Shown piece by piece: positions 6,722-54,394 of a stretch of 54,394 nucleotides of DNA. The number at the start of each line of letters is the position of its first letter. Within the stretch, counting starts at the first letter, position 1. Source of the stretch: a virus (lineage: Duplodnaviria > Heunggongvirae > Uroviricota > Caudoviricetes); IMG/VR virus record IMGVR_UViG_2541047753_000004, one strand, 5' to 3'. Both the position numbers and the translations under genes were made by a program. The notes beneath the pieces were generated by a model that made no database searches, was not told the origin of the DNA, and was given only the letters and a program-made list of their open reading frames with translations.

Positions 6722-6724
6722 GGA

Positions 6725-9318: not shown

Positions 9319-10397
9319 CAGAACGGGTCCTCCTGTACTCTGGCTTTTTTCTTTTTCCGCGCGCCGGGGGCTTCGGGTTCAGGCAGATAAGCATCAGGTG
9401 GGCCGACACGGATTTCCGTCAGGGTGCCGTTCTGGTCCTGAGTAAACGTGACTTCCGAGACAAGCAGTTCGGTATTGTCGAAACCACAGACCGGATCGAA
9501 GACAATCACCCGCTGGTTGGGCTGCCACAGCGTACCGTTACCCTGTCGCCAGCCCTGCACCACATAGGTGGTTTCATCCGTCCGCGCCGCCCGTTGTCGG
9601 GCTTCAAAGTCAGCACGCGCAATACAGCCTGCCCCCGTAGCCTGCCCTGTCTGCCTGATATACATCGGACGATAACGGGCAATAAATGCGTCCTCTGTGC
9701 GGGCCCGCAGCGCAGTTGTGGTGGCCTCACCGAAATCATCGTCGTTTCCGGCACGCTGCCCCGCCACCTGGTAAACAGAAAACCGCTCCCGGATACTCTT
9801 CTCCGTATCGCAGGAAAGGATGTTTTCCCCGAGTACCAGCGCGGTATGTGCCCGCGTTGAGCCAATACCGCCAATCACCAGCCTGCCGTGCGGGTCGTCA
9901 TAAGCCAGCGCCTGCTGCTGACCGAGTATTTTGTTAATCACCTCGATCACCGTTTCACCGTGATCAGGCTGGACATCAGGAATAACACCCGACGGCGCAC
10001 CGCTGTTCACCACCTCAATGCCGAAGGGCGCAGCAAGCGCCTGCGCAATCTGTACCAGTGATCGTCCGTTAAACTGTGTCGGTTCGGCTGCACAATCAAT
10101 CAGGTCAGCGGTCAGACTGCGTCCGGCAATACCGGTGCTGACCGAACGGGCATCGTAACGAACGGGCGTCGCCTCCACCCAGCCGGTGATCACCAGCTCA
10201 TCACCAATCAGCACCTCCACTTTTGAACCGTTTTTAATGCGCGGCTGAAGCGTGGTGATACCCTCATCACCCGGCCACTGGCGGGTGATCTCCACACTGA
10301 AATCCCGCGCCAGTCGTTCAACACCGGCACCGATGCGCACCGATGTCCAGCTATTCCACTCCCGGCCATTTACCCGTAGCGTGACATTGTCGTTCAT
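9318..10397 (-). CDS. Baseplate hub / late control D-family protein (Mu gp44-like)
   Basis: 359 aa upstream of gpV-like gene. Confidence 0.65.
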   Translation of the reverse strand: MNDNVTLRVNGREWNSWTSVRIGAGVERLARDFSVEITRQWPGDEGITTLQPRIKNGSKVEVLIGDELVITGWVEATPVRYDARSVSTGIAGRSLTADLIDCAAEPTQFNGRSLVQIAQALAAPFGIEVVNSGAPSGVIPDVQPDHGETVIEVINKILGQQQALAYDDPHGRLVIGGIGSTRAHTALVLGENILSCDTEKSIRERFSVYQVAGQRAGNDDDFGEATTTALRARTEDAFIARYRPMYIRQTGQATGAGCIARADFEARQRAARTDETTYVVQGWRQGNGTLWQPNQRVIVFDPVCGFDNTELLVSEVTFTQDQNGTLTEIRVGPPDAYLPEPEAPGARKKKKARVQEDPF

Positions 10398-35887: not shown

Positions 35888-36014
35888 TTTCATTACTGCA
35901 AATGCCCCTGCGGGGGCATTTATGGAAACGTAATTGACTCAATAATCGCCGGATGGTGAGGGCTTTCTTTTACCAGAATTCAGCGCGGTGCAGCGCATAT
36001 ACGTGGAGAACAAA

Positions 36015-36539
36015 ATGTCATTTATTAAAACTTTTTCCGGGAAGCATTTTTATTATGACAGGATAAATAAAGACGACATCGTTATTAACGATATCGCGGT
36101 TTCTCTTTCAAATATCTGTCGCTTTGCAGGACATCTTTCACATTTCTACAGCGTCGCCCAACATGCGGTGCTTTGCAGCCAACTGGTACCGCAGGAATTT
36201 GCTTTTGAAGCGTTAATGCATGATGCAACAGAAGCGTATTGCCAGGACATCCCGGCGCCACTGAAACGCCTTCTTCCTGACTATAAACGGATGGAAGAAA
36301 AAATAGACGCCGTAATCCGTGAGAAATACGGGTTACCCCCGGTTATGAGTACGCCCGTGAAATATGCCGATCTCATCATGCTGGCAACCGAACGCCGCGA
36401 TCTCGGGCTTGATGATGGCTCTTTCTGGCCCGTACTGGAAGGTATCCCGGCAACAGAGATGTTCAAAGTTATTCCACTGTCGCCAGGCCATACCTATGGG
36501 ATGTTTATGGAACGCTTTAAAGAGTTAACTGAGTCGTAA
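36015..36539 (+). CDS. HD-domain phosphohydrolase (YfdR-like)
   Basis: HD motif context HAVLCSQLVPQEF...ALMHDATEAY; start at MSFIKTF. Confidence 0.65.
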   Translation: MSFIKTFSGKHFYYDRINKDDIVINDIAVSLSNICRFAGHLSHFYSVAQHAVLCSQLVPQEFAFEALMHDATEAYCQDIPAPLKRLLPDYKRMEEKIDAVIREKYGLPPVMSTPVKYADLIMLATERRDLGLDDGSFWPVLEGIPATEMFKVIPLSPGHTYGMFMERFKELTES

Positions 36540-36647
36540 AAATCAGCACGTACGAATTCAAACTCTGCCATAAAAGAACATATAAGTAATTTATTAACAT
36601 ATAGATATAGGTTATATTACAAATTGAAAAATTATTGGAGAGCAACA

Positions 36648-37514
36648 ATGAATCAAAATCCATTCTCATTCTATGACTTTCTTGGATATTTAATACCAGG
36701 TGGTTTTTTTATCCTATTAATGTATTTCTGTGGTTTGACATTCGATCTAGATATTGTTATTGACTTAAGTGAATTACTCAGAGGTCAAAGTCAAATCTTT
36801 GGCATTTTGAACTACGCTTCAATAGTTATTATATCTTATATAGCTGGACATTTTATTTCTATCACGTCAGCATTTTTTATCGAAAAATACATGAATAAAG
36901 AATTAGGATATCCTTCCAAATATCTATTTAAAAAATTGATAGATACCTCAGAAAGCATTTGTAGCCCATCATGCGATGAGAGAAGCGCTGATAAAAAAAC
37001 AAAAATAAAGAATCGCATAATCAAATGCGTATTATGTCCAATAATACTATGGGATTTTATAACACAAAAACTATGTTATTCTCAATCTCTACCATTTCAT
37101 TTAGCTAATACAACATGGTTAATGATCAAAGAAGGTTATGAGAAAAAGTTCATAACAAATCGCCAATTATTACAAGATAAAAACGGACTTGATGATGATC
37201 TCTTCAGATTGGCATATCATTATGTTTATGAGTTTTCAAAACAACATCAAACAAAAATTCAAAACTATGTTGCATTATATGGTTTTTGCAGAAACATATG
37301 TTTAATCTTTATAATTTCATTTTGGGTATCAGTTCCAACCTTTATTTATCGATTATGTACTCATAGTGATTATCTTTATAGTTTACTTTCAATAATGCTT
37401 AGCTTTTTCTTCGTCTATGTTTTCTATGTTGGTTTTGTTAAATTTTATAGAAGATATACTTTAGAAGTATTAATGGCATTTGCTGTACTTCAAAGTAACG
37501 ACACTATTCGTTAA
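36648..37514 (+). CDS. AT-rich multi-pass membrane protein (cargo gene, unknown function)
   Basis: 288 aa from ATG with GGAGAG SD; hydrophobic helices at both ends; strongly AT-rich relative to neighbours. Confidence 0.55.
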   Translation: MNQNPFSFYDFLGYLIPGGFFILLMYFCGLTFDLDIVIDLSELLRGQSQIFGILNYASIVIISYIAGHFISITSAFFIEKYMNKELGYPSKYLFKKLIDTSESICSPSCDERSADKKTKIKNRIIKCVLCPIILWDFITQKLCYSQSLPFHLANTTWLMIKEGYEKKFITNRQLLQDKNGLDDDLFRLAYHYVYEFSKQHQTKIQNYVALYGFCRNICLIFIISFWVSVPTFIYRLCTHSDYLYSLLSIMLSFFFVYVFYVGFVKFYRRYTLEVLMAFAVLQSNDTIR

Positions 37515-37555
37515 TAATGTTGCTCCCGTGTGCAGACGGGATAATGGAGAAACGT

Positions 37556-37762
37556 ATGCTGAACCTCGATTGTGTTCCTATCTCAACTTATTGCAAAGAA
37601 ACTGGCGAAACTCCTGAAGCAATAAACAAACGTGTACAGCGCGGTGTTTGGCGTGAAGGTGTTCAGGTTTTAAAGGTTGAAGGCGTTAAGGAGAGGTGGA
37701 TTGATCTTAGTGAGGTTGCAAAATGGGCCAGACAAAACTGCTCAAACTACCGCGCGGCGTAA
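37556..37762 (+). CDS. xis: Excisionase (Xis-like)
   Basis: Small basic protein immediately upstream of and overlapping int; start uncertain (37517, 37544 or 37556). Confidence 0.55.
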   Translation: MLNLDCVPISTYCKETGETPEAINKRVQRGVWREGVQVLKVEGVKERWIDLSEVAKWARQNCSNYRAA

Positions 37763-38895
37763 CAATCAGGAAACACCGCCAGGGAGAAACGATCAATATA
37801 ACTTTCACCTACAAAGGAGTTAGATGTCGTGAGCCGCTTTCCAATCTGGAAGTAACACCAAAGAACATTAAATACGCCGAGCGTACACTCGGCGAAATCC
37901 ATAATAAGATCGAAAGGGGAACATTCATTTATGCAGAATATTTTCCCCGTTCTGCTCGTTTGAAAATTTTTGGTAATGCTGCTGCAGGCAAAACGGTAAA
38001 GGTGTACCTGGACGAATATCTTGAAATCTGCGAAACAAGAAAACTTTCACCCTCTACGATTGGTGGCTATAAAAAATGCCGTAGTGCGTTAGCCTCACTT
38101 CACATTTGCCCTGCAAGTGAATTAACACCAGCAACCCTGAAAGCGTGGATTCAAAGCCAGAAAACAACCTTAAAAACCATTCGCAACCAGTTATCTTTCC
38201 TACGGTCAGCACTTGATGAAGCCGTGACCGATGGGGTACTTCAAATTAACCCCGTATCGTTAGTAACAGCTTCGCGCTACCAAAGTGATAAGTCAGAAGC
38301 AGAAAGCAGCTATGTGGTTGATCCGCTATCACCAGCAGAAGTTGATGCATTACTAGCAGCAGCCGGAAACAAACAATGGGAAAATCTGTTCCGGTTCGCC
38401 ATACATACAGGCCTGCGTAGTTCTGAATTATGTGCCCTACGATGGCATGATATCGACTTTGTTGGAAAAACAGCCCATGTTCAGAGCGCAAGTGTTGTCG
38501 GAGTTATCAAAGGAACAAAGACAAAAGCCGGTACCCGTAAAGTTGAACTGACTGAAGAAGCAATGTTGGCGTTGATAAACCAGAAGCCATTTACATTCAT
38601 GAAGGATGCTACTGTCTTTGAAGATCCAAAGACCAATAAACCCTGGGCAAGTGCTGATGCAATTAGGAAAAAAGCATGGGTGCCAACATTGCGAAAAGCA
38701 GGTATTCGTTACAGAAACCCATATCAAACCAGGCATACATTCGCCACCAGCCATATCAGCCGGGGAGCAAACCTGTTTTGGCTTGCGGCTCAAATGGGCC
38801 ATAAAGGGCCTGAAATGTTATTCAGGCACTATGGACAATACTTGAAAGAGTATGATGGGAGGGCAAGTATCAAGGATAAAAAGGCTTTATTTTAA
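37723..38895 (+). CDS. int: Tyrosine integrase (lambda Int family)
   Basis: 390 aa; C-terminal catalytic region R...HTFATSHISRGANLFWLAAQMGHKGPEMLFRHYGQY with conserved R, H-x-x-R and Tyr. Confidence 0.9.
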   Translation: MGQTKLLKLPRGVTIRKHRQGETINITFTYKGVRCREPLSNLEVTPKNIKYAERTLGEIHNKIERGTFIYAEYFPRSARLKIFGNAAAGKTVKVYLDEYLEICETRKLSPSTIGGYKKCRSALASLHICPASELTPATLKAWIQSQKTTLKTIRNQLSFLRSALDEAVTDGVLQINPVSLVTASRYQSDKSEAESSYVVDPLSPAEVDALLAAAGNKQWENLFRFAIHTGLRSSELCALRWHDIDFVGKTAHVQSASVVGVIKGTKTKAGTRKVELTEEAMLALINQKPFTFMKDATVFEDPKTNKPWASADAIRKKAWVPTLRKAGIRYRNPYQTRHTFATSHISRGANLFWLAAQMGHKGPEMLFRHYGQYLKEYDGRASIKDKKALF

Positions 38896-39486
38896 GTCAT
38901 TATGCCAATCGTCTACTGTTTGAAACCAAATTTTTAACCTTTGCATAAAGGTACGATCCTTTTTGGGAGGGTGGTACCTTTGAAAAGAAGTATGTAACGC
39001 TTCGATAACTCCCATACAAGCATCAATTACTTCTTGTGCTTTAACCGGGCGATCGGTATCTGAAAGCTTGTGAGCGACCTCACAATCCAGAGTTGCTTTC
39101 TCTAGTACAGATGAGAACACCTCGTCAGGTATATACAGTCCTCTGCTTTCCAAAATGCAAATCAGTTTGGAAACTTGTTGAGCTTTAGCCAAGATAGTTA
39201 ACAAGTATGAAACAGAAGCCTTTGTTCTATCCTTTTGCAACCTTAACAATCGATGCTTTGATGCTCTAATTTTAGGTTGAGTTGTCTGACTGAGCCAATA
39301 GTTAGAAGAAATATCAGAAATTTCAATAACTAACTTTGAAATAGCATCAATAATTGATTTCGATTCAGAACGTGTCGCCAGTTTTACAGAATTATTGTAC
39401 GCAACTCGCCATCCAATGAAAACTAAGCAGACGCTAACTACTGTGATACACCACGAATACTGTCCTATTTGTGCTACTAATGACAT
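38887..39486 (-). CDS. Single-pass membrane protein, unknown function (cargo operon gene 3)
   Basis: N-terminal TM helix WCITVVSVCLVFIGW, helical soluble domain; last gene of a 3-gene minus-strand operon; start at internal ATG 39486 (ORF track begins at TTG 39504). Confidence 0.5.
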   Translation of the reverse strand: MSLVAQIGQYSWCITVVSVCLVFIGWRVAYNNSVKLATRSESKSIIDAISKLVIEISDISSNYWLSQTTQPKIRASKHRLLRLQKDRTKASVSYLLTILAKAQQVSKLICILESRGLYIPDEVFSSVLEKATLDCEVAHKLSDTDRPVKAQEVIDACMGVIEALHTSFQRYHPPKKDRTFMQRLKIWFQTVDDWHNDLK

Positions 39487-39514
39487 TGGTTCCGTACTGA
39501 TCAACTATCGCCTC

Positions 39515-39841
39515 TTATACTCTTTCTGGTTGTGCTAAATCAATAAATTTATCAATCTGTTCTTTGTAGAACGGAACATCACTTTTTATAATCAAACGTG
39601 CTTTAACGTTGGCTTTAGGTATCCCTTCCTTACGGATGAGACCTCCAAACGCCTCTTCTAAGAAAGAGGAACCAACACCCAGTGCTATACCGCGAAAATC
39701 AACCACAATCTCCTGTTCAGTACCCTTCAGCGCAGGCACCAAAAACTCTCTACGAAATCTTTCCGCACTGTGTGGGCTATCCGTTGTGTAACGTCCGAAA
39801 GGTGTTCTGGAGAACTCCTTCGCTATGACGATATTTCTCAT
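39515..39841 (-). CDS. STAS-like small protein (DUF4325-like) (cargo operon gene 2)
   Basis: 108 aa; IVVDFRGIALGVGSSFLEEAFGG resembles the STAS / anti-sigma-antagonist core; AGGAG SD; starts 4 nt after upstream stop. Confidence 0.55.
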   Translation of the reverse strand: MRNIVIAKEFSRTPFGRYTTDSPHSAERFRREFLVPALKGTEQEIVVDFRGIALGVGSSFLEEAFGGLIRKEGIPKANVKARLIIKSDVPFYKEQIDKFIDLAQPERV

Positions 39842-39845
39842 AAAA

Positions 39846-40757
39846 TCATCTCCTGGGAACCAGCGACCATTGTAGTAAAGTACCCGGTATGTACTCAGCT
39901 AGCTTCTCACATCGAGGACTACTGTCATTAGAATTATAGCTATAACGAGCCCTTCCTGTTAGTATCAGAAGTGTCTCATTATCCTCACAACCTGCCCCAA
40001 TAGGTCTCTTGATATCTTCAGAGCCATTTCCCCGTCCGGAACCAACAAAGCGGGATTCCCCTACTAACATAGCTCTTTCCACAGAAGATACTTCGTTTTG
40101 AATGCTATGACCATCACCATTAGGCACGAAACTTCTATAAATCCCCAATCCAAGGTCACAAACGATAAAAACGACTTTATTTTCATCACGATTGAACCAA
40201 GCGCACTGCCACCATCGTTTACCTTTGAGAAGCTGAATATCTGACTCGAACCCCTCATCTTCATACGCATGATGAGAAACATTGAGCAAAGCTTCACTAA
40301 TCGCTGTCAGCAGTAAGCCTAACTGTTCATTATTAAGCAGAGCACTTTTCTGCAGCATGAGTACTGTTTCAACAATATGCTCGTAAGGTTCGACAGCTGA
40401 CTGAAAGTATCGTTCCTCCCTCGTAAGTGCATTCAGTTTCTCTTCTGTGCCAGCAAGCAAAGCACGAGCAAGTCCAGTACCAACGATCCATCTATGCCCA
40501 GATGGGTTATCATCCTTTTTAGGCCATTTAAAACGTATAAAATTAGGGTCCCGGGTTAAAAATTGAGCTCTATTTACTATGGCAAAGAACAGTACCGATG
40601 CCGCAGCTGAGGCAAATTTTACCTTGGACAAATCAACTATAACTCGACCTTTATTTTTTACTCCAATCGATTCAATCGAGTTGATGAAGTTCAATGTCCC
40701 AGCCCTAGAATCATCTGAGTAAATGCAAAATTTGCTTGGGGGTACCAGTATGGTCAT
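39846..40757 (-). CDS. GHKL-type ATPase/kinase with N-terminal STAS-like region (cargo operon gene 1)
   Basis: Bergerat-fold motifs: N-box EALLNVSHHAY, G1 DLGLGI, G2 GSGRGNG; N-terminal RVIVDLSKVKFASAAASVLFFAI resembles STAS beta-strand/helix. Confidence 0.6.
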   Translation of the reverse strand: MTILVPPSKFCIYSDDSRAGTLNFINSIESIGVKNKGRVIVDLSKVKFASAAASVLFFAIVNRAQFLTRDPNFIRFKWPKKDDNPSGHRWIVGTGLARALLAGTEEKLNALTREERYFQSAVEPYEHIVETVLMLQKSALLNNEQLGLLLTAISEALLNVSHHAYEDEGFESDIQLLKGKRWWQCAWFNRDENKVVFIVCDLGLGIYRSFVPNGDGHSIQNEVSSVERAMLVGESRFVGSGRGNGSEDIKRPIGAGCEDNETLLILTGRARYSYNSNDSSPRCEKLAEYIPGTLLQWSLVPRR

Positions 40758-41125: not shown

Positions 41126-42319
41126 GTGGCACGTACAACACGCCCTCTTACTAACACTGAACTATCACGTGCTAAAGCAACTGAAAAGGATCTAACGCTA
41201 CATGATGGTGATGGGCTTTTTCTACTCATAAAAACGAACGGAAGGAAGTTGTGGCGTTTCCGATACCAGAAGCCTGTATCAAAACAGAGAACCATGATTA
41301 GTTTAGGAACGTTCCCCGCCCTATCTCTGGCTGAGGCCAGAAACGTGCGTGCTGAGTATCTTTCCTTATTAGCCCGGGGTATTGATCCACAAACATACAG
41401 TAAGCAAGTCTCAGAACATCAACAGATTGCGATTGATAGTATTTTTTCAAAAGTTGCCACAAATTGGTTTGCCATAAAAAGCAATAACGTCACACCTGAT
41501 TATGCAAAGGATATATGGCGATCCTTAGAGAGGGACATTTTCCCTGCTATCGGTGAGATTCCTGTTCAGGAAATAAAAGCCCGCACATTAATTGAAGCCC
41601 TAGAGCCAATTAAAGCTCGTGGGGCACTTGAGACTGTTCGTCGTTTAGTACAACGTATTAATGAAATTATGATTTATGCTGTTAATACTGGTCTGATAGA
41701 TGCTAACCCTGCTTCAGGCATTGGTATGGCATTTGAAAAACCTAAAAAACAGCACATGCCAACGCTTAGACCTGAAGAATTACCGAAACTCATGCGTTCA
41801 ATAACAATGTCTAATTTATCTATTCCAACTCGTTGTTTGATTGAATGGCAACTCTTAACACTTGTACGCCCTGCAGAAGCTTCCAATGCAAAGTGGATAG
41901 AGATCGATTTCGAAGCTAAACTATGGATAATACCAGCCAATAGAATGAAGGCAAAGCGGGAACATATTGTTCCATTATCACTTCAGACATTAGATATTCT
42001 TGAAATTATGAAGCCAATCAGTTCACATCGAGAATATATTTTTCCTAGCAGGAATAACCCCAATCAACCAATGAACAGTCAGACGGCAAATGCAGCCTTA
42101 AAGCGCATCGGTTATGGTGGTAAGTTGGTTGCACACGGACTGCGTTCGATAGCAAGTACAGCAATGAATGAAGCTGGTATAAATCCAGATATTATCGAAG
42201 CAGCACTTTCCCATTGTGATAAAAATGAGGTTAGAAGAGCATATAATCGAACAACCTACTTGGAACAAAGAAAAGAGCTTATGAATTGGTGGGGTAGTTT
42301 CATTTCAAAAAACAAATAA
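41126..42319 (+). CDS. int: P4-type tyrosine integrase
   Basis: 397 aa, GTG start, N-terminal MARTTRPLT...DGDGL...LGTFPALSLAEAR typical of P4/CP4-57 IntA; adjacent to ssrA 3' end. Confidence 0.9.
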   Translation: MARTTRPLTNTELSRAKATEKDLTLHDGDGLFLLIKTNGRKLWRFRYQKPVSKQRTMISLGTFPALSLAEARNVRAEYLSLLARGIDPQTYSKQVSEHQQIAIDSIFSKVATNWFAIKSNNVTPDYAKDIWRSLERDIFPAIGEIPVQEIKARTLIEALEPIKARGALETVRRLVQRINEIMIYAVNTGLIDANPASGIGMAFEKPKKQHMPTLRPEELPKLMRSITMSNLSIPTRCLIEWQLLTLVRPAEASNAKWIEIDFEAKLWIIPANRMKAKREHIVPLSLQTLDILEIMKPISSHREYIFPSRNNPNQPMNSQTANAALKRIGYGGKLVAHGLRSIASTAMNEAGINPDIIEAALSHCDKNEVRRAYNRTTYLEQRKELMNWWGSFISKNK

Positions 42320-42329
42320 GGATATAGTG

Positions 42330-43445
42330 ATGAATAATAAAGATTTTCCATGCAAAGCCTCAAATATCTATGATAAAAATATAAATTTTTTATTTGGCTC
42401 AGGCTCCTCTGCTTCATATATTCCTACTCTCTATCTAGATAAAAACACTACTTATGAAACATTACTTACACATGAGGATTGTGAGGGTGTCAAGGACTTC
42501 ATATTATGTTCTTATTTCAATAATATCATTAGAAAAACATTTTGTGTTAAACCTAATAGTGAAGACAAAAAATATAATTCTACTTTAGCAAACTATAGCT
42601 ACTTTATTGATGAACTAATCAAATTATTAGAGAAAAAAGGGGCAAATCAAATAAGGCGAGCGAATATTTTTACAACAAATTATGATCTTTTTTTCGAAAC
42701 TGCGGCTGATGATATTTTAAATAATAAAACATTTCATTTCAATGACGGTGGTCTAGGTTTCAAAAGCCGGAAATTGAACATTAGTAATTTTCATATTACT
42801 GCTTGGCATCAAGGTACGCATGATATGTACAAACATGAAATTCCAACAGTAAACTTAATAAAAATGCATGGTTCTGTTTCTTGGTGTAGAGATATTAATG
42901 AAACGATTAGTATTAATTACACTCAAGAAGAACCACCAAAGTTTAGACTAGATACAAAAAAAGACATTAATGATTTAGTCACCACCTTAAACGAAACAAG
43001 CGATAATCTCGTTAGTTATTTAAATTTATCTACAAGCGATCAAGAAACACTTCAAGAATTTAAATCTTATTACAACAACTTAGCTATAGTTAGCCCAACT
43101 AAAGAAAAATTTTCTGAAACTGTTTTTCAACAACATTATTACCAATGTTTACGATTGCTAAGTTATGAATTAGAGAAACCACAAACTGTATTAATTTGTT
43201 TTGGTTTTTCTTTTCAAGATGAACACATACGTGAGATTATAAAAAGATCATTAAGTAACCCTACTCTTAAGGTCTTTGTTTTTTGCTACTCAAAATCCAG
43301 CATGGAAAGTATACAGCACATTATCAATGACCAACGAATAACCTATATTCTTCCTATAGAAGATGATCATACAATTTCATTTAAACCGTTTATAGATAGA
43401 GTATTTAGATCTGAACACGGAGATTGGATTACATGGAAGAACTAA
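42330..43445 (+). CDS. SIR2-like domain protein (NADase-type defence effector)
   Basis: FLFGSGSS (Rossmann Gly-rich), TTNYDLFFE, MHGSVSW motifs; AT-rich; AAGGA SD. Confidence 0.7.
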   Translation: MNNKDFPCKASNIYDKNINFLFGSGSSASYIPTLYLDKNTTYETLLTHEDCEGVKDFILCSYFNNIIRKTFCVKPNSEDKKYNSTLANYSYFIDELIKLLEKKGANQIRRANIFTTNYDLFFETAADDILNNKTFHFNDGGLGFKSRKLNISNFHITAWHQGTHDMYKHEIPTVNLIKMHGSVSWCRDINETISINYTQEEPPKFRLDTKKDINDLVTTLNETSDNLVSYLNLSTSDQETLQEFKSYYNNLAIVSPTKEKFSETVFQQHYYQCLRLLSYELEKPQTVLICFGFSFQDEHIREIIKRSLSNPTLKVFVFCYSKSSMESIQHIINDQRITYILPIEDDHTISFKPFIDRVFRSEHGDWITWKN

Positions 43446-45205
43446 TTGTTGGTAATGTTACCCAAATAAAGGGCACAACAGTAAGGGCCAAAATCAATCA
43501 TGACTTTTTTCAGTCAACATACTTTCATAAAGGTAAAATACTACGAGGTATCTCTATAAATGAATTTGTTTTGATTAAAAAAGGTTATCACGATATCGTC
43601 GGAAAGATTATTGGTGAAGAAATTGTTGAAAACATCAATATTAGAAGCGATGAAATTGAACAAAAAAAATATGACCGTTTTGTAGAACTGAATATTTTAG
43701 GGTATTTTTTTGAGAGTTCATTTTATTCCGGTATAAAATTTTTACCAATGATAAATGACAGCTTACACTTAATTTCAGACGAGAAGATATCAGAAATATA
43801 TAAGTTTAGCAAAAACACTAAAGCACCTTTAATAAACATAGGGAAATCTATGTTAGAGGAGTTGCCAATTAACATACCAATAAATGGTATTTTTAATTCA
43901 CACATAGGCATATTTGGAAACACTGGAAGTGGCAAGTCCAACACTCTTGCAAAACTTTATCACTCTCTAATAAACCTTATAACAACAAAAGAAAGAGTTA
44001 TATCAAAATCAAGTTTTGTTTTGATTGATTTTAATGGTGAATACAGCACATTTGCTACGTCATTTCCAGATTTGTGCGAACAAGTCAATCTCAACACAAA
44101 GAATTCCGGTGATAAACTAACTTTCACTGATGATGAATTTTGGGATGATGAATTATTATCGGTATTGTTTTCTGCAACTGAAAAAACTCAAAAGCCATTT
44201 CTTAGTCATTTAATTAAAAATAGAGAAAAATATAATGGTAAATTGGAGGATTACTTACAAACAACTATCCACAGTATGTTTTCTCCTAATCCACACAGGG
44301 AAACAATAAATTTATTAAAAAGCCTTGCCCCTTACTTTTCAGAGAGAGCACAGGGTAAAATACTTGAAGAGTTATCACAATTCTCATGGCATTCTGGGCA
44401 AAATAAGTATTTGCACTCAAAATACAACTTCATTGATAAAATGGAAGATGCTTTACAGGCTTTAGATGCAACATATAAATCCAAGTTTAAGTTAAACAGC
44501 GTTTTTGATGAAGTTGCAATCCGATCTATTCTACAACTAATTAATTCAGTATCACGTAATTATGTACAATATGATCATATATATCCGCTAATTAATAAAA
44601 TAACGGCAATGACTCCTGCCCTATCCAAAGTAATTAATATCAGAAACGAAACAAAAAATAAAAAACCTATATATATAGTGTCATTAAAAGAGTGCAATCA
44701 ATTAATCAAAAAAACCATTCCAATGATGCTTGCAAAATGTTCATTCTTAGAGCACAAGTCATCTAAAAATACAAAGGAAAGCTTCCACCTAATTATAGAT
44801 GAAGCACACAACATATTGTCTGAAACATCTGTCAGAGAGGCGGAAACATGGAAAGATTATAGGCTTGAGTTATTTGAGGAAATAATAAAAGAGGGAAGGA
44901 AGTTTGGGTTCTTCGTTACAATTTCGAGTCAACGACCTTTTGACATCTCTCCCACAATTGTTTCCCAACTTCATAATTATTTTATTCATCGATTAGTGAA
45001 CGAAAATGATTTGTTTTTGTTAAAAAATACTTTAAGCACCCTTGATGCGGCATCAAGATCACTAATTCCAACACTTCCTCCTGGTGGGTGTATAGTTTCA
45101 GGAACAGCTTTCCACACCCCATTACTTGTTCAAATCGACAGATTAGCTGAGGAAAATGCTCCTAACAGCGATACTCTTGATTTAGAAAAATTGTGGGATA
45201 TTTAA
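43424..45205 (+). CDS. HerA-like ATPase (DUF87)
   Basis: Walker A GIFGNTGSGKSNT, Walker B LIIDEAHN; overlaps SIR2 gene by 22 nt. Confidence 0.75.
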   Translation: MDYMEELIVGNVTQIKGTTVRAKINHDFFQSTYFHKGKILRGISINEFVLIKKGYHDIVGKIIGEEIVENINIRSDEIEQKKYDRFVELNILGYFFESSFYSGIKFLPMINDSLHLISDEKISEIYKFSKNTKAPLINIGKSMLEELPINIPINGIFNSHIGIFGNTGSGKSNTLAKLYHSLINLITTKERVISKSSFVLIDFNGEYSTFATSFPDLCEQVNLNTKNSGDKLTFTDDEFWDDELLSVLFSATEKTQKPFLSHLIKNREKYNGKLEDYLQTTIHSMFSPNPHRETINLLKSLAPYFSERAQGKILEELSQFSWHSGQNKYLHSKYNFIDKMEDALQALDATYKSKFKLNSVFDEVAIRSILQLINSVSRNYVQYDHIYPLINKITAMTPALSKVINIRNETKNKKPIYIVSLKECNQLIKKTIPMMLAKCSFLEHKSSKNTKESFHLIIDEAHNILSETSVREAETWKDYRLELFEEIIKEGRKFGFFVTISSQRPFDISPTIVSQLHNYFIHRLVNENDLFLLKNTLSTLDAASRSLIPTLPPGGCIVSGTAFHTPLLVQIDRLAEENAPNSDTLDLEKLWDI

Positions 45206-45219
45206 TATCGCTACGCGCA

Positions 45220-45238
45220 GTGCTTTCCCCGCCTCGCC
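45220..45238. other. cos cohesive-end sequence (P2/P4 type)
   Basis: gtgctttccccgcctcgcc is the reverse complement of the 19-nt GGCGAGGCGGGGAAAGCAC I recall for P2/P4. Confidence 0.7.
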
Positions 45239-45402
45239 CGCACGCTTTGCGGGGCGGTTTTAATGCAGTTGCACTGACACGCTCAGACCGCGCCGGGAAT
45301 GGCGCGGTCTGCAGAAAATGAGGCAGGGAAACGCATGCAAAGCCATGCACCTTATCGATGCATGGCTTTTTTCAGTAAAAACAGGCGGATTTTCGGGAAA
45401 TT

Positions 45403-45975
45403 TTACACAGACTGACGTGATGCCAGTTGCGCACTTTTACGCGAAAAAATCATGTTCTGCGCAGGGGTAAATTTTTCACGGCTGTCGTCCACCGAAGCCG
45501 CGTCAGGCCTGAATCCGATGGTCGTTAAAATGTCGCTATCCTGTGCGGAATAATTAATTTTTTCCCCCTTCGCAAGCCAGGACAGAAGGGCTTCACGCAG
45601 GGCATCTGTGGCACGCTGTATGGCACAGTTTCGGGCAATGGCCGTCAGCTCACTGTAGCCCATCAGCTCCGGTGCCAGTGCCGCCGCCAGTGCTGTGCCG
45701 TGCTGCTGCATAAAATCATTCAGCCGGTCGCGGATGCTGATGTGCTGAACGGCTTCATGCGAACGAATATAACGACCAGCGGCCTGATTCACCTGCCATT
45801 TTCTGACTTCGATAATATTGCGTAATTCGTCCAGGCGACTGACGTTTCTGCCTTCTCCTGACAGAAGCCGCAGATATTCCTGTTCGGCCGCTGCCAGCTC
45901 ATTTTTGCGTTGCAGCCATGCTGCTTTGTTATTCTGACAGGTGTCAAAGGCCTGCTGTAAGGCTGTGCTTTCCAT
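45403..45975 (-). CDS. psu: Polarity suppression protein Psu
   Basis: 190 aa, length and sequence as recalled for P4 Psu. Confidence 0.85.
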   Translation of the reverse strand: MESTALQQAFDTCQNNKAAWLQRKNELAAAEQEYLRLLSGEGRNVSRLDELRNIIEVRKWQVNQAAGRYIRSHEAVQHISIRDRLNDFMQQHGTALAAALAPELMGYSELTAIARNCAIQRATDALREALLSWLAKGEKINYSAQDSDILTTIGFRPDAASVDDSREKFTPAQNMIFSRKSAQLASRQSV

Positions 45976-46048
45976 CGTTATCTCTTTCTCATCATGCTGA
46001 AGAATAAAAATACGGTGTGCGGCGACGGCCGGTGTTAACCGGCAGCCC

Positions 46049-46549
46049 TCATTCCAGACGCAGCGAATATGATTGTGTTTTTAAGCGTACTGGCGGCAGT
46101 TCCTGTTTTTCATGCAGGCTTTCTGCCAGTTCGTCCGGCGTGACCGGGCGGACAATGAAACGGTTGATGGTCTGAAGCGTTTTAAACACCAGACCACAGC
46201 CCGGATCCGTGCACACATAAAAACGCTCGGTGACTTCCTGAGACAGACGCCGCGATGTTCTTGACAGTGCAAGGCCTTTACATCTCCGACAACAATATCC
46301 GGTAACAAGCATTCTTTTCGGGCGTTTCATACTGCCGGAGGCTGACGTCAGTGAATCGCGGTATCTCTGTTTGCCTGAAATGTATTCCATTCCTGAATCT
46401 TTACTGTCAGAGAAAAAGCTTTCACTCGCTTCAAATGTCGCAGAGCAATAAATATTCCGGCACTGTGCAATCATTATCTTGGTGCCATCGTCCATGAAAT
46501 GTGCGCGGCGGGTGTGAGCAACATGACCACACGACGGGCAGTAAATCAT
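46049..46549 (-). CDS. delta: Late gene activator Delta (Ogr/Delta zinc-finger family)
   Basis: 166 aa with two CxxC...CxxC zinc-finger units (MIYCPSCGH..., ...CCRRCKG...CTDPGCG). Confidence 0.85.
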   Translation of the reverse strand: MIYCPSCGHVAHTRRAHFMDDGTKIMIAQCRNIYCSATFEASESFFSDSKDSGMEYISGKQRYRDSLTSASGSMKRPKRMLVTGYCCRRCKGLALSRTSRRLSQEVTERFYVCTDPGCGLVFKTLQTINRFIVRPVTPDELAESLHEKQELPPVRLKTQSYSLRLE

Positions 46550-47280
46550 GACAGCAGTCCTCTGGCCTTAAGCACTGCTCCCTGCTGGTCTATTTTGTCC
46601 TGCCACACCTTGCGCTGTGCCGGTGTGCCTGCCACCTCATAATCCATGTGAGGAAGTGTTGCCGCTGACAGTCCGGTCAGCCGGAGAACCGGCTCGCCGG
46701 TGAGGCTGATTTGCATCTGTTTAATTTTCTGTTCCAGCGATGATTTCACCTGCTGCATGACAGCCTTTTCCGGTGCGACGTAGCCCTGATGGCCGGTGGT
46801 GTTGGCGAGCGGATTTTCCTGTACCAGAATGCTCAGATGCATTGCCCGGACAAGCGCCTCACAGGTTTCATTCAGGGCGTGTTCCAGCTCATGCTCTGCA
46901 TACAGACTCAGAAGGTGATGATGTGCCTTCCGGTAGGCGGTGGCCGTGCTGTCACACGCCCCTTTCAGGCGTTCGCGTTCAAAATTCAGCACCACGGCCA
47001 GATTGTCATATTCCTGTACCAGTTCCCGGCGTGCCACGCGCTCAATGTGGCGCTGTTTCAGCTCGTCGCTCAGGACACCACCGGCTGCACGAAAGGCCGT
47101 GCGCCAGTCGTCAGCGTCGTTTCCGTCGGCCTGCGCCAGCGCATTTTTTTCCTGCTCTGCCCGTTCAATGGCCGTGACGGTCTCATCCATCAGGCGGGCG
47201 TTCTCAAGATGGGCGGCTCTGGCCTTTTCCAGTTGTGCCAGTGCGGGTTGCAGATATTCAGGGATGGTGTTGTCAGACAT
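46546..47280 (-). CDS. sid: Capsid size determination protein Sid
   Basis: 244 aa from MSDNTIPEY; position in psu-delta-sid operon. Confidence 0.8.
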   Translation of the reverse strand: MSDNTIPEYLQPALAQLEKARAAHLENARLMDETVTAIERAEQEKNALAQADGNDADDWRTAFRAAGGVLSDELKQRHIERVARRELVQEYDNLAVVLNFERERLKGACDSTATAYRKAHHHLLSLYAEHELEHALNETCEALVRAMHLSILVQENPLANTTGHQGYVAPEKAVMQQVKSSLEQKIKQMQISLTGEPVLRLTGLSAATLPHMDYEVAGTPAQRKVWQDKIDQQGAVLKARGLLS

Positions 47281-47298
47281 TTTCCGGCTCCTCGTCAC

Positions 47299-47832
47299 TT
47301 CAGGTTAAGAAAATTGTGACGTACACCGGACAACAACACGACGCATTGCAGATGTGCCAGCCCTGACACAGGAGACTCATCCTCAGACCGGCAAGCCAGG
47401 AAAAGGTCGCAGGAAAAACCGGCTTACTGTTTGTTTTTTTATATTTTACTGTTCACCTCTGTTCACCATAAGAAAAAAGACAAGTAATACAGTAAGTTAA
47501 ATGGTGAACAATCGCAGTAATGACTGTTCACCGTCTGTTCACCACTGTTCACCCGTTGATGGGCTTTTTGTGCTGTTTATTACTGTTTGTTTTTATTAAT
47601 TCGCCGGGAATGAATAAGAAAAAACGATTTGTATTTCACTATAAAAATTACGAATTGCTTTAAGTGGCTTTAAATGACTTTAAGTGGAGATGAACAAAAA
47701 ACACACAAGCATTATAAGACTGCCGGAACAAATCCCCCCTGTTGCGTCTGCTGAAAATATTCACAAAATAAAGCGCTACCCGAAGCCGGACGGACTTATC
47801 CGGTGCTGTATGGACATTAACGAGGTAGCCCG
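47299..47832. promoter_or_regulatory. P4-like Psid/PLL/PLE promoter and immunity region (expected site of CI RNA)
   Basis: Intergenic region between sid and orf88 by P4 gene order; no RNA gene could be delimited by eye. Confidence 0.35.
47449..47553. repeat. ori-like cluster of TGTTCACC octamers (alpha-binding type I repeats)
   Basis: Six copies of TGTTCACC/GGTGAACA within ~105 bp, ~4.8 kb from crr. Confidence 0.65.
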
Positions 47833-48099
47833 ATGCAAGCTGTTTTTTCTTCCCCGTCTCCCGCCCCTGTGACGCCACTGATGCCGCTGCCGGACATCAC
47901 GCAGGAGCGTTTTTTACGTCTGCCGGAAGTGATGCACCTGTGCGGCCTGTCACGCTCGACCATCTATGAACTCATCCGTAAGGGGGAATTTCCGCCGCAG
48001 GTGAGTCTTGGCGGTAAAAATGTGGCCTGGCTGCACTCTGAAGTCACTGCATGGATGGCCGGGCGCATTGCCGGACGCAAACGGGGGTACGACGCATGA
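47833..48099 (+). CDS. AlpA-family HTH regulator (P4 orf88-like)
   Basis: 88 aa; [29 protein letters not shown]; GAGG SD. Confidence 0.7.
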
Positions 48100-48695
48100 T
48101 GATGCCCGCTCTGCAAAAACGCCCTTTTTCTGGCTTGCCTTTTTCCGGCATTTGCGGATATAGTTTTTCCGCTGCCGCAAAATCGGCAGCCGGGCGTGGA
48201 AACCCGAGCAATTCACAGGCGACATATGACGCGCCATGCGTCTTTTTTTGTGTCGCAATCAACGCCACAGAGCGCCAGATTATGGTGTGGTGTGTGGTCA
48301 GTCGTGCAGATGGCATTCCGTGCATCCTGCCCGCGTCCGCTCATTATGCCGCAGAGTCAATGGTAGCTCAGGCGGGGCAGCCTCCGGGCTGGCCGGTATC
48401 CTGTGAAGCCGGTATTTCCACCCCCGTCTGGGCTATCGCCATCGAGCGTGGAAACTCCGGCGATAGCGTTATTTGCTATTCACAGGAGGCTGCCATCATG
48501 GCTACAACCCTTACCCCCTCACACCCTGAATTTGTCTTTGTGTTTGCGGCTGTCCGTCGCGCAGACCGTCATCCCCGTATCTGTATGCTTCGCACCGTCG
48601 CCGGTGATGAACGCAGTGCCCGCCGTTCCCTTGTCCGTGACTATGTGCTCTCCCTTGCTGCCCGTCTGCCGGTGGTGGAGGTGTCCCGTGCGTAA
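48096..48695 (+). CDS. Hypothetical protein (P4 orf199-like)
   Basis: 199 aa from MMMPALQ; size and position. Confidence 0.45.
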
Positions 48696-48975
48696 TAAAA
48701 AAGCCCCTCAGACCGTCTCAGCGCGTCATGACGCCCGTGAACACCTCAGCATTGAGGCTTACCATAAGCTCAACCGCGCCAGCGCCGTATCCCGGTTTGT
48801 TGGGGGTGATTTGATTCACCGTGAACTCTCCGGCCTGCATCAGCTCTACATTCCGCATATTTTCAGCTACCTGAATGAAGATATTGATTTTGTGCTGAAT
48901 GAGCTGAAAGCCAAAGGCCTGTGCCGCGATTTTCTCGCCCAGCAGAAAGACCGGGGAGACAGGACGCATGTTTGA
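48688..48975 (+). CDS. eps: Epsilon-like derepression protein (putative)
   Basis: 95 aa from GTG with GGAGG 7 nt upstream, overlapping upstream stop; position before orf151. Confidence 0.45.
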
Positions 48976-49423
48976 TTTTCCCCAGCCCGGTGAGATTTAC
49001 CGTTCTGCCGGTTTTCCCGATGTGGCCGTGGTCGGCATTCTGGAAGACGGTATTCCGTGGGAAATGCCGTACCGCTGCCCGGACATTGTCTGGAACCCGT
49101 ACCGCCGTAAATTCAGTATCCTTGTGCGTATCCTCGCTGACGGGCGCACCACAGACATCCCGCTGGGGCGTTTTCTGCGGGAATTTACCTGTGACCGTCC
49201 TGACCTGTTTAAACGCAGCCCCGTAAACCGGCATGCGGTACTGAAAGAAATGGCCGGAGACCCGGAATTACAGAAATGGCGGGAGAAATATCTGGATATT
49301 TACCCGCAGGACACTGTTCCGGCCAGCCGGGCGGCACCGGTGGCGCGGGAATGGCGGGAAATTCCCCGCACGGAGCCTGACCCGGAAATCACCCCGGATA
49401 ACAGTTACCGCAATTATCTGTAA
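48968..49423 (+). CDS. P4 orf151-like protein
   Basis: 151 aa, size and position. Confidence 0.6.
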   Translation: MFDFPQPGEIYRSAGFPDVAVVGILEDGIPWEMPYRCPDIVWNPYRRKFSILVRILADGRTTDIPLGRFLREFTCDRPDLFKRSPVNRHAVLKEMAGDPELQKWREKYLDIYPQDTVPASRAAPVAREWREIPRTEPDPEITPDNSYRNYL

Positions 49424-49558
49424 TTAAAAAACGACACCCGAAAAATTAAATGTGCGTATTCGCGCAGGGATACGCACGTCTTCAGGAGACGCAGATATGC
49501 CTTATCAGTTAATGCAACCGGCACGGAATGCAGTCATCTGTCACAGGGAGGAAAGCAA

Positions 49559-49879
49559 ATGAAAACACCCTTACCGCCCGTCTTACGCGCTGCCCTTTAC
49601 CGTCGCGCTGTCGCCTGTGCCTGGCTGACCGTGTGCGAACGTCAGCACCGCTACCCGCATCTCACCCTTGAGTCACTGGAGGCGGCCATCGCCGCTGAGC
49701 TGGAAGGCTTTTATCTGCGCCAGCACGGTGAGGAAAAAGGGCGTCAGATAGCCTGTGCCCTGCTGGAAGATTTAATGGAATCCGGCCCCCTGAAGGCCGC
49801 GCCGTCGCTGTCCTTTCTCGGGCTGGTTGTGATGGATGAACTCTGTGCCCGTCACATAAAAGCGCCGGTACTGCACTGA
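49559..49879 (+). CDS. P4 orf106-like protein
   Basis: 106 aa immediately upstream of alpha. Confidence 0.55.
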
Positions 49880-49893
49880 AGGAGAACAACACC

Positions 49894-52227
49894 ATGAAAA
49901 TGAACGTAACCGCCACCGTCAGCCATGCGCTCGGCCACTGGCCGCGTATTCTCCCGGCGCTGGGGATTCAGGTGCTGAAGAACCGTCATCAGCCCTGTCC
50001 GGTCTGTGGCGGGAGTGACCGCTTCCGTTTTGATGACAGGGAGGGGCGTGGCACCTGGTACTGCAATCAGTGTGGTGCCGGTGACGGCCTGAAACTGGTT
50101 GAAAAGGTGTTTGGTGTTTCCCCGTCCGACGCGGCCGCAAAGGTGGCTGCCGTGACCGGCAGCCTGCCACCGGCTGACCCGGCAGTGACGGCCGCCGCCG
50201 TTGCTGAAACAGAAGCCGCCCGGAAGAACGCCGCCGCACTGGCACAAACCCTGATGGCGAAAACCCGTCCCGGAACCGGTAACGCCTACCTGACCCGCAA
50301 GGGCTTTCCCGGCCGGGAATGCCGGATGCTGACCGGCACACACAGAGCCGGTGGCGTGAGCTGGCGCGCCGGTGACCTTGTGGTGCCACTGTATGACGAC
50401 AGCGGCGAACTGGTTAACCTTCAGTTAATCAGTGCTGACGGCCGTAAGCGCACCCTGAAAGGCGGACAGGTCAGGGGCACCTGTCACATCCTTGAAGGAC
50501 AGAATCAGACCGGAAAACGTCTGTGGATAGCGGAGGGATACGCGACCGCACTTACCGTGCATCACCTGACCGGTGAAACGGTGATGGTGGCGCTTTCTTC
50601 CGTGAACCTCCTTTCTCTGGCCAGCCTTGCCCGGCAGAAGCATCCGGCCTGTCAGATTGTCCTTGCCGCAGACCGTGACCTCAGCGGTGACGGCCAGAAA
50701 AAAGCCGCCGCAGCCGCAGATGCGTGTGAAGGTGTTGTTGCCCTGCCGCCGGTCTTCGGTGACTGGAATGATGCCTTCACGCAGTACGGCGGGGAAGCCA
50801 CCCGTAAGGCCATTTACGATGCCATCCGGCCACCGGCTGAAAGCCCGTTCGACACCATGAGCGAAGCGGAGTTTTCCGCCATGAGTACCAGCGAAAAGGC
50901 CATGCGTATCTATGAGCATTACGGCGAGGCGCTCGCGGTCGATGCCAACGGCCAGCTTCTGTCCCGCTATGAAAATGGTGTCTGGAAGGTGCTGCCGCCA
51001 CAGGACTTTGCCCGGGATGTGGCCGGGCTGTTTCAGCGGCTGCGCGCGCCGTTCTCCTCCGGGAAGGTGGCCTCCGTGGTGGACACCCTGAAGCTGATTA
51101 TTCCGCAGCAGGAAGCCCCCTCCCGCCGCCTGATTGGCTTTCGTAACGGCGTGCTCGACACGCAGAACGGCACGTTCCACCCGCACAGTCCGTCACACTG
51201 GATGCGCACCCTGTGCGATGTGGATTTCACCCCACCGGTGGAAGGGGAAACGCTGGAAACCCACGCCCCCGCGTTCTGGCGCTGGCTTGACCGTGCCGCC
51301 GGTGGCCGTGCGGAAAAACGCGACGTGATTCTGGCCGCACTGTTTATGGTGCTGGCAAACCGCTACGACTGGCAGCTCTTTCTGGAGGTGACCGGTCCCG
51401 GCGGCAGCGGCAAAAGTATCATGGCCGAAATAGCCACCCTGCTGGCCGGGGAGGATAACGCCACGTCGGCCACCATTGAGACGCTGGAATCCCCGCGTGA
51501 ACGTGCCGCGTTAACTGGCTTCTCACTGATACGCCTGCCGGACCAGGAAAAATGGAGCGGCGACGGTGCCGGACTCAAGGCCATCACCGGCGGCGATGCG
51601 GTGTCCGTGGACCCGAAATACCGGGATGCGTACTCCACGCATATCCCGGCGGTGATTCTGGCCGTGAACAATAACCCGATGCGCTTCACCGACCGCAGCG
51701 GCGGCGTGTCACGCCGGCGGGTGATTATTCACTTCCCGGAACAGATAGCCCCGCAGGAGCGCGACCCGCAGCTTAAGGACAAAATCACCCGCGAGCTGGC
51801 GGTCATCGTGCGTCACCTGATGCAGAAATTCAGCGACCCGATGCTCGCCCGGTCACTGCTTCAGTCCCAGCAGAACTCAGACGAGGCGCTGAACATCAAA
51901 CGGGATGCCGACCCGACGTTTGATTTTATCGGCTATCTGGAAACCCTGCCGCAGACCAGCGGCATGTATATGGGGAACGCCAGTATCATCCCGCGCAATT
52001 ACCGTAAATACCTCTATCACGCCTATCTGGCCTACATGGAGGCAAACGGCTACCGGAATGTACTCAGTCTGAAAATGTTCGGGCTGGGGCTGCCGGTGAT
52101 GCTGAAGGAATACGGACTGAATTACGAGAAGCGCCATACCAAACAGGGGATACAGACCAACCTGACGCTGAAAGAGGAAAGCTACGGCGACTGGCTGCCA
52201 AAATGTGACGACCCTGCGACAGCCTGA
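49894..52227 (+). CDS. alpha: Alpha primase-helicase
   Basis: 777 aa; N-terminal zinc-binding CPVCGGSDRFRFDD...YCNQCG primase region, central Walker A GPGGSGKS helicase region. Confidence 0.9.
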   Translation: MKMNVTATVSHALGHWPRILPALGIQVLKNRHQPCPVCGGSDRFRFDDREGRGTWYCNQCGAGDGLKLVEKVFGVSPSDAAAKVAAVTGSLPPADPAVTAAAVAETEAARKNAAALAQTLMAKTRPGTGNAYLTRKGFPGRECRMLTGTHRAGGVSWRAGDLVVPLYDDSGELVNLQLISADGRKRTLKGGQVRGTCHILEGQNQTGKRLWIAEGYATALTVHHLTGETVMVALSSVNLLSLASLARQKHPACQIVLAADRDLSGDGQKKAAAAADACEGVVALPPVFGDWNDAFTQYGGEATRKAIYDAIRPPAESPFDTMSEAEFSAMSTSEKAMRIYEHYGEALAVDANGQLLSRYENGVWKVLPPQDFARDVAGLFQRLRAPFSSGKVASVVDTLKLIIPQQEAPSRRLIGFRNGVLDTQNGTFHPHSPSHWMRTLCDVDFTPPVEGETLETHAPAFWRWLDRAAGGRAEKRDVILAALFMVLANRYDWQLFLEVTGPGGSGKSIMAEIATLLAGEDNATSATIETLESPRERAALTGFSLIRLPDQEKWSGDGAGLKAITGGDAVSVDPKYRDAYSTHIPAVILAVNNNPMRFTDRSGGVSRRRVIIHFPEQIAPQERDPQLKDKITRELAVIVRHLMQKFSDPMLARSLLQSQQNSDEALNIKRDADPTFDFIGYLETLPQTSGMYMGNASIIPRNYRKYLYHAYLAYMEANGYRNVLSLKMFGLGLPVMLKEYGLNYEKRHTKQGIQTNLTLKEESYGDWLPKCDDPATA

Positions 52228-53317: not shown

Positions 53318-54394
<1,077 letters not shown>

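Follow-up and report, generated by a model that had tools for sequence, protein, structure and literature searches.

What does a stand-alone, AT-rich membrane protein gene do between the early-left genes and the excisionase gene of a lambdoid Escherichia coli prophage? We asked this question for a locus in IMG/VR record IMGVR_UViG_2541047753_000004, a stretch of 54,394 nucleotides assigned to the Caudoviricetes and referred to below as the window. The locus holds a gene for a 288-residue protein, flanked by yfdR on its 5' side and by xis and int on its 3' side (Table 1). We are confident of the descriptive part of the answer: the gene is real, its product crosses the inner membrane four times, with N-terminus and C-terminus inside the cell, and is a member of a large family with a remote link to the CRISPR accessory protein Csx27, and the gene travels as mobile cargo. 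Our answer to the functional part is tentative: we give a probability of about 40% to a membrane effector or sensor that works on its own in phage conflict, nearer to abortive infection (Abi) than to exclusion in the periplasm.

Counted from a TTG, the frame at 36624..37514 (+) runs for 296 codons without a stop, and an inner ATG at 36648 yields the 288-amino-acid (aa) product. This second start is backed by a GGAG 7 nt 5' of the ATG and by the M-x-QNPFS sequence, which forms the N-terminus of essentially all homologues. An identical 867-nt coding sequence (CDS) is present in RefSeq E. coli UTI89, where its product WP_001075212.1 is annotated as 'hypothetical protein'. At the base composition of the region the probability of a stop is 0.079 per codon (one per ~12.6 codons) and that of 288 consecutive open codons is ~5e-11, while the remaining five frames across the gene contain 21-31 stops each. 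The GC content of the gene is 0.283 (0.21 at third codon positions) and that of the 108-bp spacer 5' of it is 0.259, compared with 0.462 for yfdQ, 0.460 for yfdR, 0.459 for xis, 0.443 for int and 0.493 for the whole window. An initial annotation of the locus had described a gene much more AT-rich than its neighbours, placed between an HD-domain gene and xis. The difference in composition is borne out (0.283 against 0.44-0.46 GC), and so is the position: yfdR, the final conserved gene of the yfdP-yfdQ-yfdR early-left block, lies upstream, with the excisionase and then the integrase downstream.

Hydrophobic helices were located by Kyte-Doolittle analysis at aa ~12-34, 55-78, 208-236 and 243-267, and the helices of an AlphaFold2 (AF2) model agree with these assignments. 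The hydrophobic ends noted by the initial annotation thus turn out, in the transmembrane (TM) topology check, to be two helices at each terminus (2+2). Its description of the central region as Lys/Asn-rich holds for lysine and for basic residues in general (17 K+R, 12 of them Lys, in aa 100-215) and fails for asparagine, of which there are 5. There are 6 K+R in aa 215-288; read from the sequence, the loop formed by residues 33-54 is acidic with a single basic residue (R45), and the loop 237-242 has no basic residue. Because of this K/R distribution we place the two short loops in the periplasm; on the cytoplasmic side lie both ends of the protein, the C-terminal helix included, and the central domain of ~130 aa. 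AF2 run on a 136-sequence alignment returned an all-helical model with a predicted local distance difference test score (pLDDT) of 89.7 and a predicted TM-score (pTM) of 0.89; an earlier run on 11 sequences had been weaker (pLDDT 66.6). A Foldseek search with the pLDDT-89.7 model against the PDB and BFVD gave zero matches at E ≤ 1e-3, and a sequence-profile search of the PDB produced a chance match to ITPR2 alone (E 0.03).

The conserved residues of the family line the cytoplasmic side of this topology. The average information content is 3.36 bits/site in the N-terminal motif, the most conserved part of the family, 2.27 in the segment after TM2, 2.56 in the segment before TM3 and 2.14 in the C-terminal helix; it is 0.56 in periplasmic loop 1 and 0.31 in periplasmic loop 2, and zero residues in either loop are ≥80% conserved. 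Within the central domain, conservation is juxtamembrane (E79...GYPS(88-90) on one side and D184, R187, H191-Y192, E195, H200, K203 and N206-Y207 on the other), and the middle of the domain (aa ~99-182) is variable in the family and hypervariable among E. coli alleles. Whatever the role of the protein, its specific interactions sit at the cytoplasmic face of the membrane. The pattern fits sensing or regulation from inside the cell, or the mouth of an enzyme or channel. The initial annotation had named superinfection exclusion (Sie) as a possible function, and a periplasm-facing blocker of incoming phage DNA is the poorer fit because both periplasmic loops are unconserved and the motifs are all cytoplasmic.

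No family had been recognised for the protein in the initial annotation, and here our results differ. The protein matches PHROG 12528, a phage family of unassigned function, end to end (aa 1-288 on profile positions 1-288 of 288), with an E value of 8e-174. Among 5.8 billion proteins a word-indexed search found 593 matches, the top ones all enterobacterial 'hypothetical proteins', and a profile search of 1.84 billion representatives of clusters at 50% identity returned at least 941 clusters with E ≤ 1e-3, 491 with E ≤ 1e-10 and 207 with E ≤ 1e-30, nearly all of them 265-320 aa long and aligned over their full length. A pattern scan of one genome per species located 119 loci in Gamma-, Beta- and Deltaproteobacteria, Bacteroidota, Chloroflexota, Gemmatimonadota, Acidobacteriota, Bacillota, Spirochaetota and other groups. 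In the 136-sequence alignment the mean column identity is 21%, with 6 invariant columns and ~31 more that are ≥90% conserved. When the protein and the 136 members were scanned, Pfam gave no model and scattered noise, and NCBIfam no family save a sub-threshold Csx27. A megablast search at the DNA level found no match among phage GenBank records, where homologues emerged at the protein level, and a literature search found no paper mentioning WP_001075212. The family is without a Pfam model, a solved structure or a name, and the gene has until now been a 'hypothetical protein' gene.

Csx27 is the sole remote relative that recurs across Pfam, NCBIfam and PADLOC. The PADLOC Csx27 model matches the window protein with an E value of 1.4e-5 (aa 6-268, model positions 4-188 of 206) and, with members scanned singly, 98 of the 136 sequences (best 2.2e-10); the Klebsiella, Enterobacter and P2-type homologues match it independently. 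A sister model in PADLOC, tm_4, which is also labelled type VI-B-associated, matches 32 of the 136 members, and the independently built Csx27 model of NCBIfam matches 25 (best 2e-6). No other membrane family recurs among the ~49,000 models searched, which makes composition bias an unlikely source of these matches. The link is remote: the window protein scores 14.9 bits (E 0.02) against the strict equivalog model NF040557, far short of its cutoff of 65 bits, and the match is confined to the N-terminal 40 residues. Neither cas13b nor a CRISPR array adjoins the gene, which has yfdR, xis and int around it in the window, and no cas gene is listed beside a homologue at the loci examined.

Csx27 is a predicted four-TM accessory of type VI-B1 CRISPR-Cas13b systems and lowers Cas13b interference up to 1e5-fold on co-expression (Smargon et al.). 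A 2021 preprint on Csx28 called its mechanism not understood, and a 2026 review terms it just 'inhibitory', with no mechanism given. In an in-silico study, Makarova et al. 2019 (FEMS Microbiol Lett 366:fnz088) are reported to assign Csx27 to a wide group of 4-TM proteins associated with competence, ubiquitin-like and WYL genes, and to predict for it a membrane channel for single-stranded DNA (ssDNA) tied to natural transformation. The window protein and Csx27 are both small inner-membrane proteins with four predicted TM helices, and both occur in conflict-related, horizontally mobile contexts. The window protein exceeds Csx27 by ~80 residues and has a larger cytoplasmic domain between TM2 and TM3; unlike Csx27, it stands alone and is carried by enterobacterial temperate phages. 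To judge from sequence, the family appears to be a distant, longer branch of Csx27-like 4-TM proteins, and the gene is best described as a phage-borne, stand-alone variant of them.

The gene behaves as cargo in E. coli. Its DNA is present at 80-100% identity in 205 of 5,426 complete E. coli genomes (176 at ≥99%), with UTI89, S88, IHE3034, APEC O1 and ATCC 11775 among the carriers, and the adjacent yfdR is found in 2,971 of the same genomes; similarity stops at the yfdR stop codon. The interval from yfdR to int is filled in other prophages by yfdS/yfdT, DUF551, an S-adenosylmethionine (SAM)-methyltransferase, an Ea22-like gene, an exonuclease and other genes. The figures of 205 and 2,971 bear out the idea that a membrane protein gene of foreign composition occupies a truly variable slot. 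Homology breaks at 36635 (the start, in allele-swapped prophages) and at 37558 (the end, in one allele group), that is, at the two ends of the gene. A search for flanking repeats or insertion scars around the cassette found short AT-rich chance repeats and zero inverted repeats.

We compared arrangements among 77 viral contigs. Besides the arrangement of the window, we find an 85% allele with diverged yfdQ/yfdR and similar xis/int, and a 78% allele that shares either the upstream or the downstream flank with the window and never both. Alleles of ~50% identity lie directly 5' of two other DUF4224-type xis and integrase modules in Klebsiella and Enterobacter, and the position tight before xis, with gaps of 6-58 bp, is shared by three different xis/int modules. 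Every allele examined is AT-rich relative to its flanks. Within the gene, identity falls to 61-77% in two patches (36900-37200 and 37300-37400; aa ~85-185 and 218-251), whereas the backbone of the same prophage pair is 96-100% identical; the patches, which fall in the cytoplasmic linker domain and in the region from TM3 through the loop to TM4, suggest mosaicism or diversifying change within the gene. The gene is a horizontally mobile one-gene cassette.

A 42% allele occupies the gpA-gpQ interval of at least 7 P2-like genomes. This old/tin hotspot is rich in defence genes and also holds partition systems and toxins (Rousset et al.); the homologue sits there, yet is not among the systems described, and its PADLOC match is to Csx27 alone. 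In the P2-like phages a gene for a 165-aa single-TM DUF4760 protein always lies 43 bp before the 42%-identical homologue (contig positions 4464-5843). The pair, next to a ParM/ParR-like partition module, could represent the cassette in two-gene form. PADLOC gives the DUF4760 protein a weak match to the candidate system PDC-S35 (E 0.014), a literature search found no relevant DUF4760 paper, and the partner is absent at the window locus.

Beyond the enterics, homologues are again single genes and occupy varied positions. One lies in the nin region of a Serratia prophage; on a plasmid-like contig of Halonatronum (5880-7744) another follows AbiGi and an Mrr fragment; in an acidobacterium the homologue precedes a type I/IIG restriction-modification (R-M) system. 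A further copy lies between toxin-antitoxin (TA) pairs, with ParE/Phd and another antitoxin beside it, and one more is part of an integrative element that also carries two integrases and a type II R-M system. In Rheinheimera the gene lies between housekeeping genes and in Pseudomonas after nrdAB. At the end of a capsule locus in Bacteroides sp. (8001-10875) the homologue stands 1 bp before the gene of a 635-aa patatin-like phospholipase, and an AEP-like protein gene comes next, an arrangement that may be a multi-gene system using the 4-TM protein. All-versus-all BLAST clustering of the open reading frames (ORFs) at 73 loci revealed no conserved partner; the largest cluster comprised 9 loci, with members at scattered positions, and the 137 immediate neighbours match 128 different Pfam families. 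Neighbours are co-directional at 64 of 69 loci upstream and at 49 of 70 downstream, counts that come from a crude ORF caller and call for caution.

We infer from this material that the protein may act alone, embedded in the inner membrane, in phage-phage or phage-host conflict. Its near-invariant cytoplasmic surface, made up of the NPFSxYDFLGY motif, the KFYRRxTLE helix and the juxtamembrane segments that follow TM2 and precede TM3, would bind a cytoplasmic ligand or partner. The surface would also control an activity of the four-helix core, for example a leak of ions or solutes or interference with a membrane step of infection, and the outcome would resemble abortive infection or exclusion. 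The initial annotation had placed the gene in a slot typical of Sie or Abi functions. Homologues that lie in the P2 old/tin hotspot, or elsewhere next to defence or mobile genes, support the slot part, and the hypervariability within the gene, set against the near-identical backbone, is an arms-race-like pattern; no match to a known Sie, Abi or other defence family accompanies them. On this sequence evidence the gene is a plausible candidate for phage conflict.

Several observations weigh against such a role. No validated defence, Sie or Abi family was matched in PADLOC-DB 2.0 or in Pfam, including SieB, RexB and Abi, and the PADLOC matches other than Csx27 and tm_4 concern few members at ~1e-3 and point to the candidates PDC-M48A and PDC-S47. 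Defence-related neighbours are scarce (2 type I R-M proteins and 4 integrases among the 137), and some members lie between housekeeping genes or at the ends of capsule loci. The sole effect of Csx27 that has been tested is inhibition of Cas13b interference and not defence, and the P2 hotspot holds cargo other than defence genes too. An enzyme or a transporter would likewise agree with the level of conservation and with the invariance of His, Glu, Arg and Lys residues. Finally, the gene may be expressed with the early-left/xis-int transcript on induction and not in the lysogen. A stronger version of the conflict reading, which we consider doubtful, is that the family constitutes a widespread one-protein membrane immune or Abi system, hitherto unrecognised, whose cytoplasmic face would sense an infection cue and gate the core, and whose free-standing form was recruited as Csx27.

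The timing of expression is also what lends some weight to the best-surviving alternative, an early gene that would benefit the phage itself, co-transcribed with xis-int and inhibiting a host immune or membrane process in the manner of an anti-defence or takeover protein. The gene shares its strand with yfdPQR, xis and int, and 41 bp separate it from xis. A crude consensus scan found no sigma-70 site in the spacer 36540-36647, and no terminator lies between yfdR and the gene or between the gene and xis; a hairpin in the gap before xis (Table 1) lacks a U-tract, which sets it apart from canonical intrinsic terminators, and it could serve xis-int expression in processing or attenuation. With no terminator before xis, the gene is probably read through into xis-int. 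Any strong constitutive promoter at this site would drive transcription into xis as well, so high expression in the lysogen seems unlikely, and the gene may well be transcribed with the early-left operon on induction. The label of a moron slot, used in the initial annotation and taken in the sense of Juhala/Hendrix, suits the composition and the differently filled interval; of the own promoter and own terminator by which a moron would be expressed from the repressed prophage, the crude scan found neither. Lambdoid early-left operons are the classical home of the anti-defence genes ral, gam and abc; the tight pre-xis slot recurs with three xis/int modules, and Csx27 as a represser of Cas13b interference would provide an analogy. 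However, E. coli has no Cas13b, and the family is not restricted to phages: most of its members stand singly on chromosomes or plasmids, in many phyla. The P2-like copies lie in the hotspot of old and tin, two genes that P2 expresses from the prophage, and the promoter scan was crude, AT-rich spacers often holding weak or regulated promoters. We consider this alternative unlikely.

Somewhat less probable still is a role outside conflict, in which the protein would be a transporter, a channel, a lipid or polysaccharide factor or a stress protein of the membrane or envelope that hitch-hikes on mobile elements and gives the lysogen a fitness trait unrelated to phages. H68, E79, H191, H200, R215, K265 and E273 are kept across phyla, as is typical of a catalytic or transport site, and several loci lie in or beside glycosyltransferase, epimerase or capsule clusters, others being single insertions between housekeeping genes. 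Yet the protein resembles no transporter or enzyme family in Pfam or NCBIfam and no solved fold, and its distribution is patchy and strain-specific. A composition that is always AT-rich and foreign, recurrence in phage cargo slots and beside Abi, R-M or TA genes, and intragenic hypervariability likewise speak against such a role.

We regard as improbable that the protein is a DNA-conducting or entry channel of the kind predicted for the Csx27 family, by which the prophage would control incoming DNA at the inner membrane. The remote Csx27 homology, the inner-membrane location and the ssDNA-channel prediction reported from Makarova et al. 2019 would be consistent with it, and it agrees with the exclusion idea of the initial annotation. 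The contexts that motivated the prediction are absent, however: no Pfam family for competence, ubiquitin-like E1/E2/JAB or WYL-HTH proteins occurs in two or more of the 137 immediate neighbours at the 73 loci. The periplasmic loops, which incoming DNA or tape-measure proteins would encounter, show the lowest conservation in the protein, and the channel of the Csx27 family is itself an in-silico prediction. Finally, a spurious or decaying ORF within AT-rich junk DNA, for which the atypical composition and the 'hypothetical protein' annotation might speak, is effectively excluded by the chance probability of ~5e-11 for the open frame, by hundreds of full-length homologues across phyla with invariant motifs, and by the confident AF2 model.

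Comparison with known membrane systems places the protein apart from each of them. SieB of lambda and P22, SieA of P22, Imm of T4, gp15 of HK97 and RexB, the membrane half of lambda RexAB, are all small multi-pass inner-membrane proteins and are likewise encoded in accessory regions of temperate phages (SieB in the early-left operon), AT-rich and patchy in distribution. The window protein has no sequence or profile similarity to any of them; its family reaches into many phyla, far beyond the range of typical Sie proteins, and is much more strongly conserved than they are, and its conserved surface faces the cytoplasm and not the periplasm. The order TM1-TM2, cytoplasmic domain, TM3-TM4 is also the layout of MotA/ExbB-type proteins, and we rejected as noise a likeness to stators of the MotA/ExbB/TolQ type, of which MotA, PomA and ExbB were among the top Foldseek matches (E ≥1, probability <0.3, TM-score ~0.2). 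KwaA of Kiwa and ZorA of Zorya are four-TM defence components as well, with no PADLOC match between either and the window protein. Unlike stators, Kiwa and Zorya, the 73 loci contain no partner gene of the MotB, ExbD, KwaB or ZorB type.

Table 1. Features of the locus and of the encoded protein, in window coordinates.
Feature	Position	Strand	Remarks
yfdR, HD-domain 5'-deoxynucleotidase (Pfam YfbR-like/HD_3, PHROG 318)	35988..36539	+	upstream neighbour
AT-rich non-coding spacer, yfdR stop to gene	36540..36647	+	ribosome-binding site GGAG at 36638-36641
CDS of 288-aa four-pass inner-membrane protein (PHROG 12528; remote Csx27-like)	36648..37514	+	stop codon 37512-37514
N-terminal motif NPFSxYDFLGYxIPGG (aa 4-19)	36657..36704	+	cytoplasmic, runs into TM1; highest conservation in the family
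TM1	36681..36743 (aa ~12-32)	+	Kyte-Doolittle, AF2
Periplasmic loop 1, acidic (aa 33-54)	36744..36809	+	unconserved
TM2 (aa ~55-78)	36810..36881	+	near-invariant Y64, G67, H68, S74
Basic cytoplasmic helical domain (aa 79-207)	36882..37268	+	K/R, AF2, alignment
TM3 (aa ~208-236)	37269..37355	+	opens with near-invariant VALYGFxR; R215 invariant
Periplasmic loop 2 (aa 237-242)	37356..37373	+	short, unconserved
TM4	37374..37439 (aa ~243-264)	+	Kyte-Doolittle, AF2
Cytoplasmic C-terminal amphipathic extension	37440..37511	+	motif KFYRRxTLExxM; K265 invariant, R268 and E273 near-invariant
Hairpin GUUGCUCCCGUGUGCAGACGGGAUAAU, -10.9 kcal/mol	37519..37545	+	in the 41-bp gap between gene and xis
Excisionase xis (PHROG 2917)	37556-37762	+	downstream neighbour; alternative ATG at 37517
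Tyrosine integrase	37723-38895	+	after xis; lambdoid E. coli prophage

Two further groups of genes lie downstream in the window. Between the prophage integrase and the integrase of a P4-like satellite, three co-directional genes on the minus strand (38887-40757) encode a 205-aa protein (PHROG 30059, hydrophobic near its N-terminus), a 108-aa STAS-like DUF4325 protein and a 303-aa HATPase_c_2-like protein. They have no PADLOC match, also follow int in UTI89, and may be cargo or a candidate defence set at the att-proximal end. The P4-like satellite adjoins the prophage at 41126-52227, with glaH/csiD after it (53417-54394); its genes comprise an integrase (41126-42319), SIR2 (42327-43445), HerA (43424-45205), psu, delta/Ogr, Ash and the alpha primase. 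SIR2 and HerA, a known defence pair of the P4 hotspot, occupy the int-psu hotspot and match PADLOC at 4e-65 and 1e-192, respectively.

Should the gene have no phenotype, it would be one more conserved 'hypothetical' cargo gene of prophages. If it affects infection, it would be a compact, 0.87 kb single-gene membrane system present in ~4% of complete E. coli genomes, among them the uropathogenic, avian pathogenic and neonatal meningitis reference strains UTI89, S88, IHE3034 and APEC O1, with relatives in many phyla. It would also tie Csx27 to a far larger family whose members can be studied alone in E. coli. If the stronger version of the conflict reading were true, lambdoid and P2-like phages would carry a new one-gene defence family, and the gene would offer the first mechanistic handle on Csx27.

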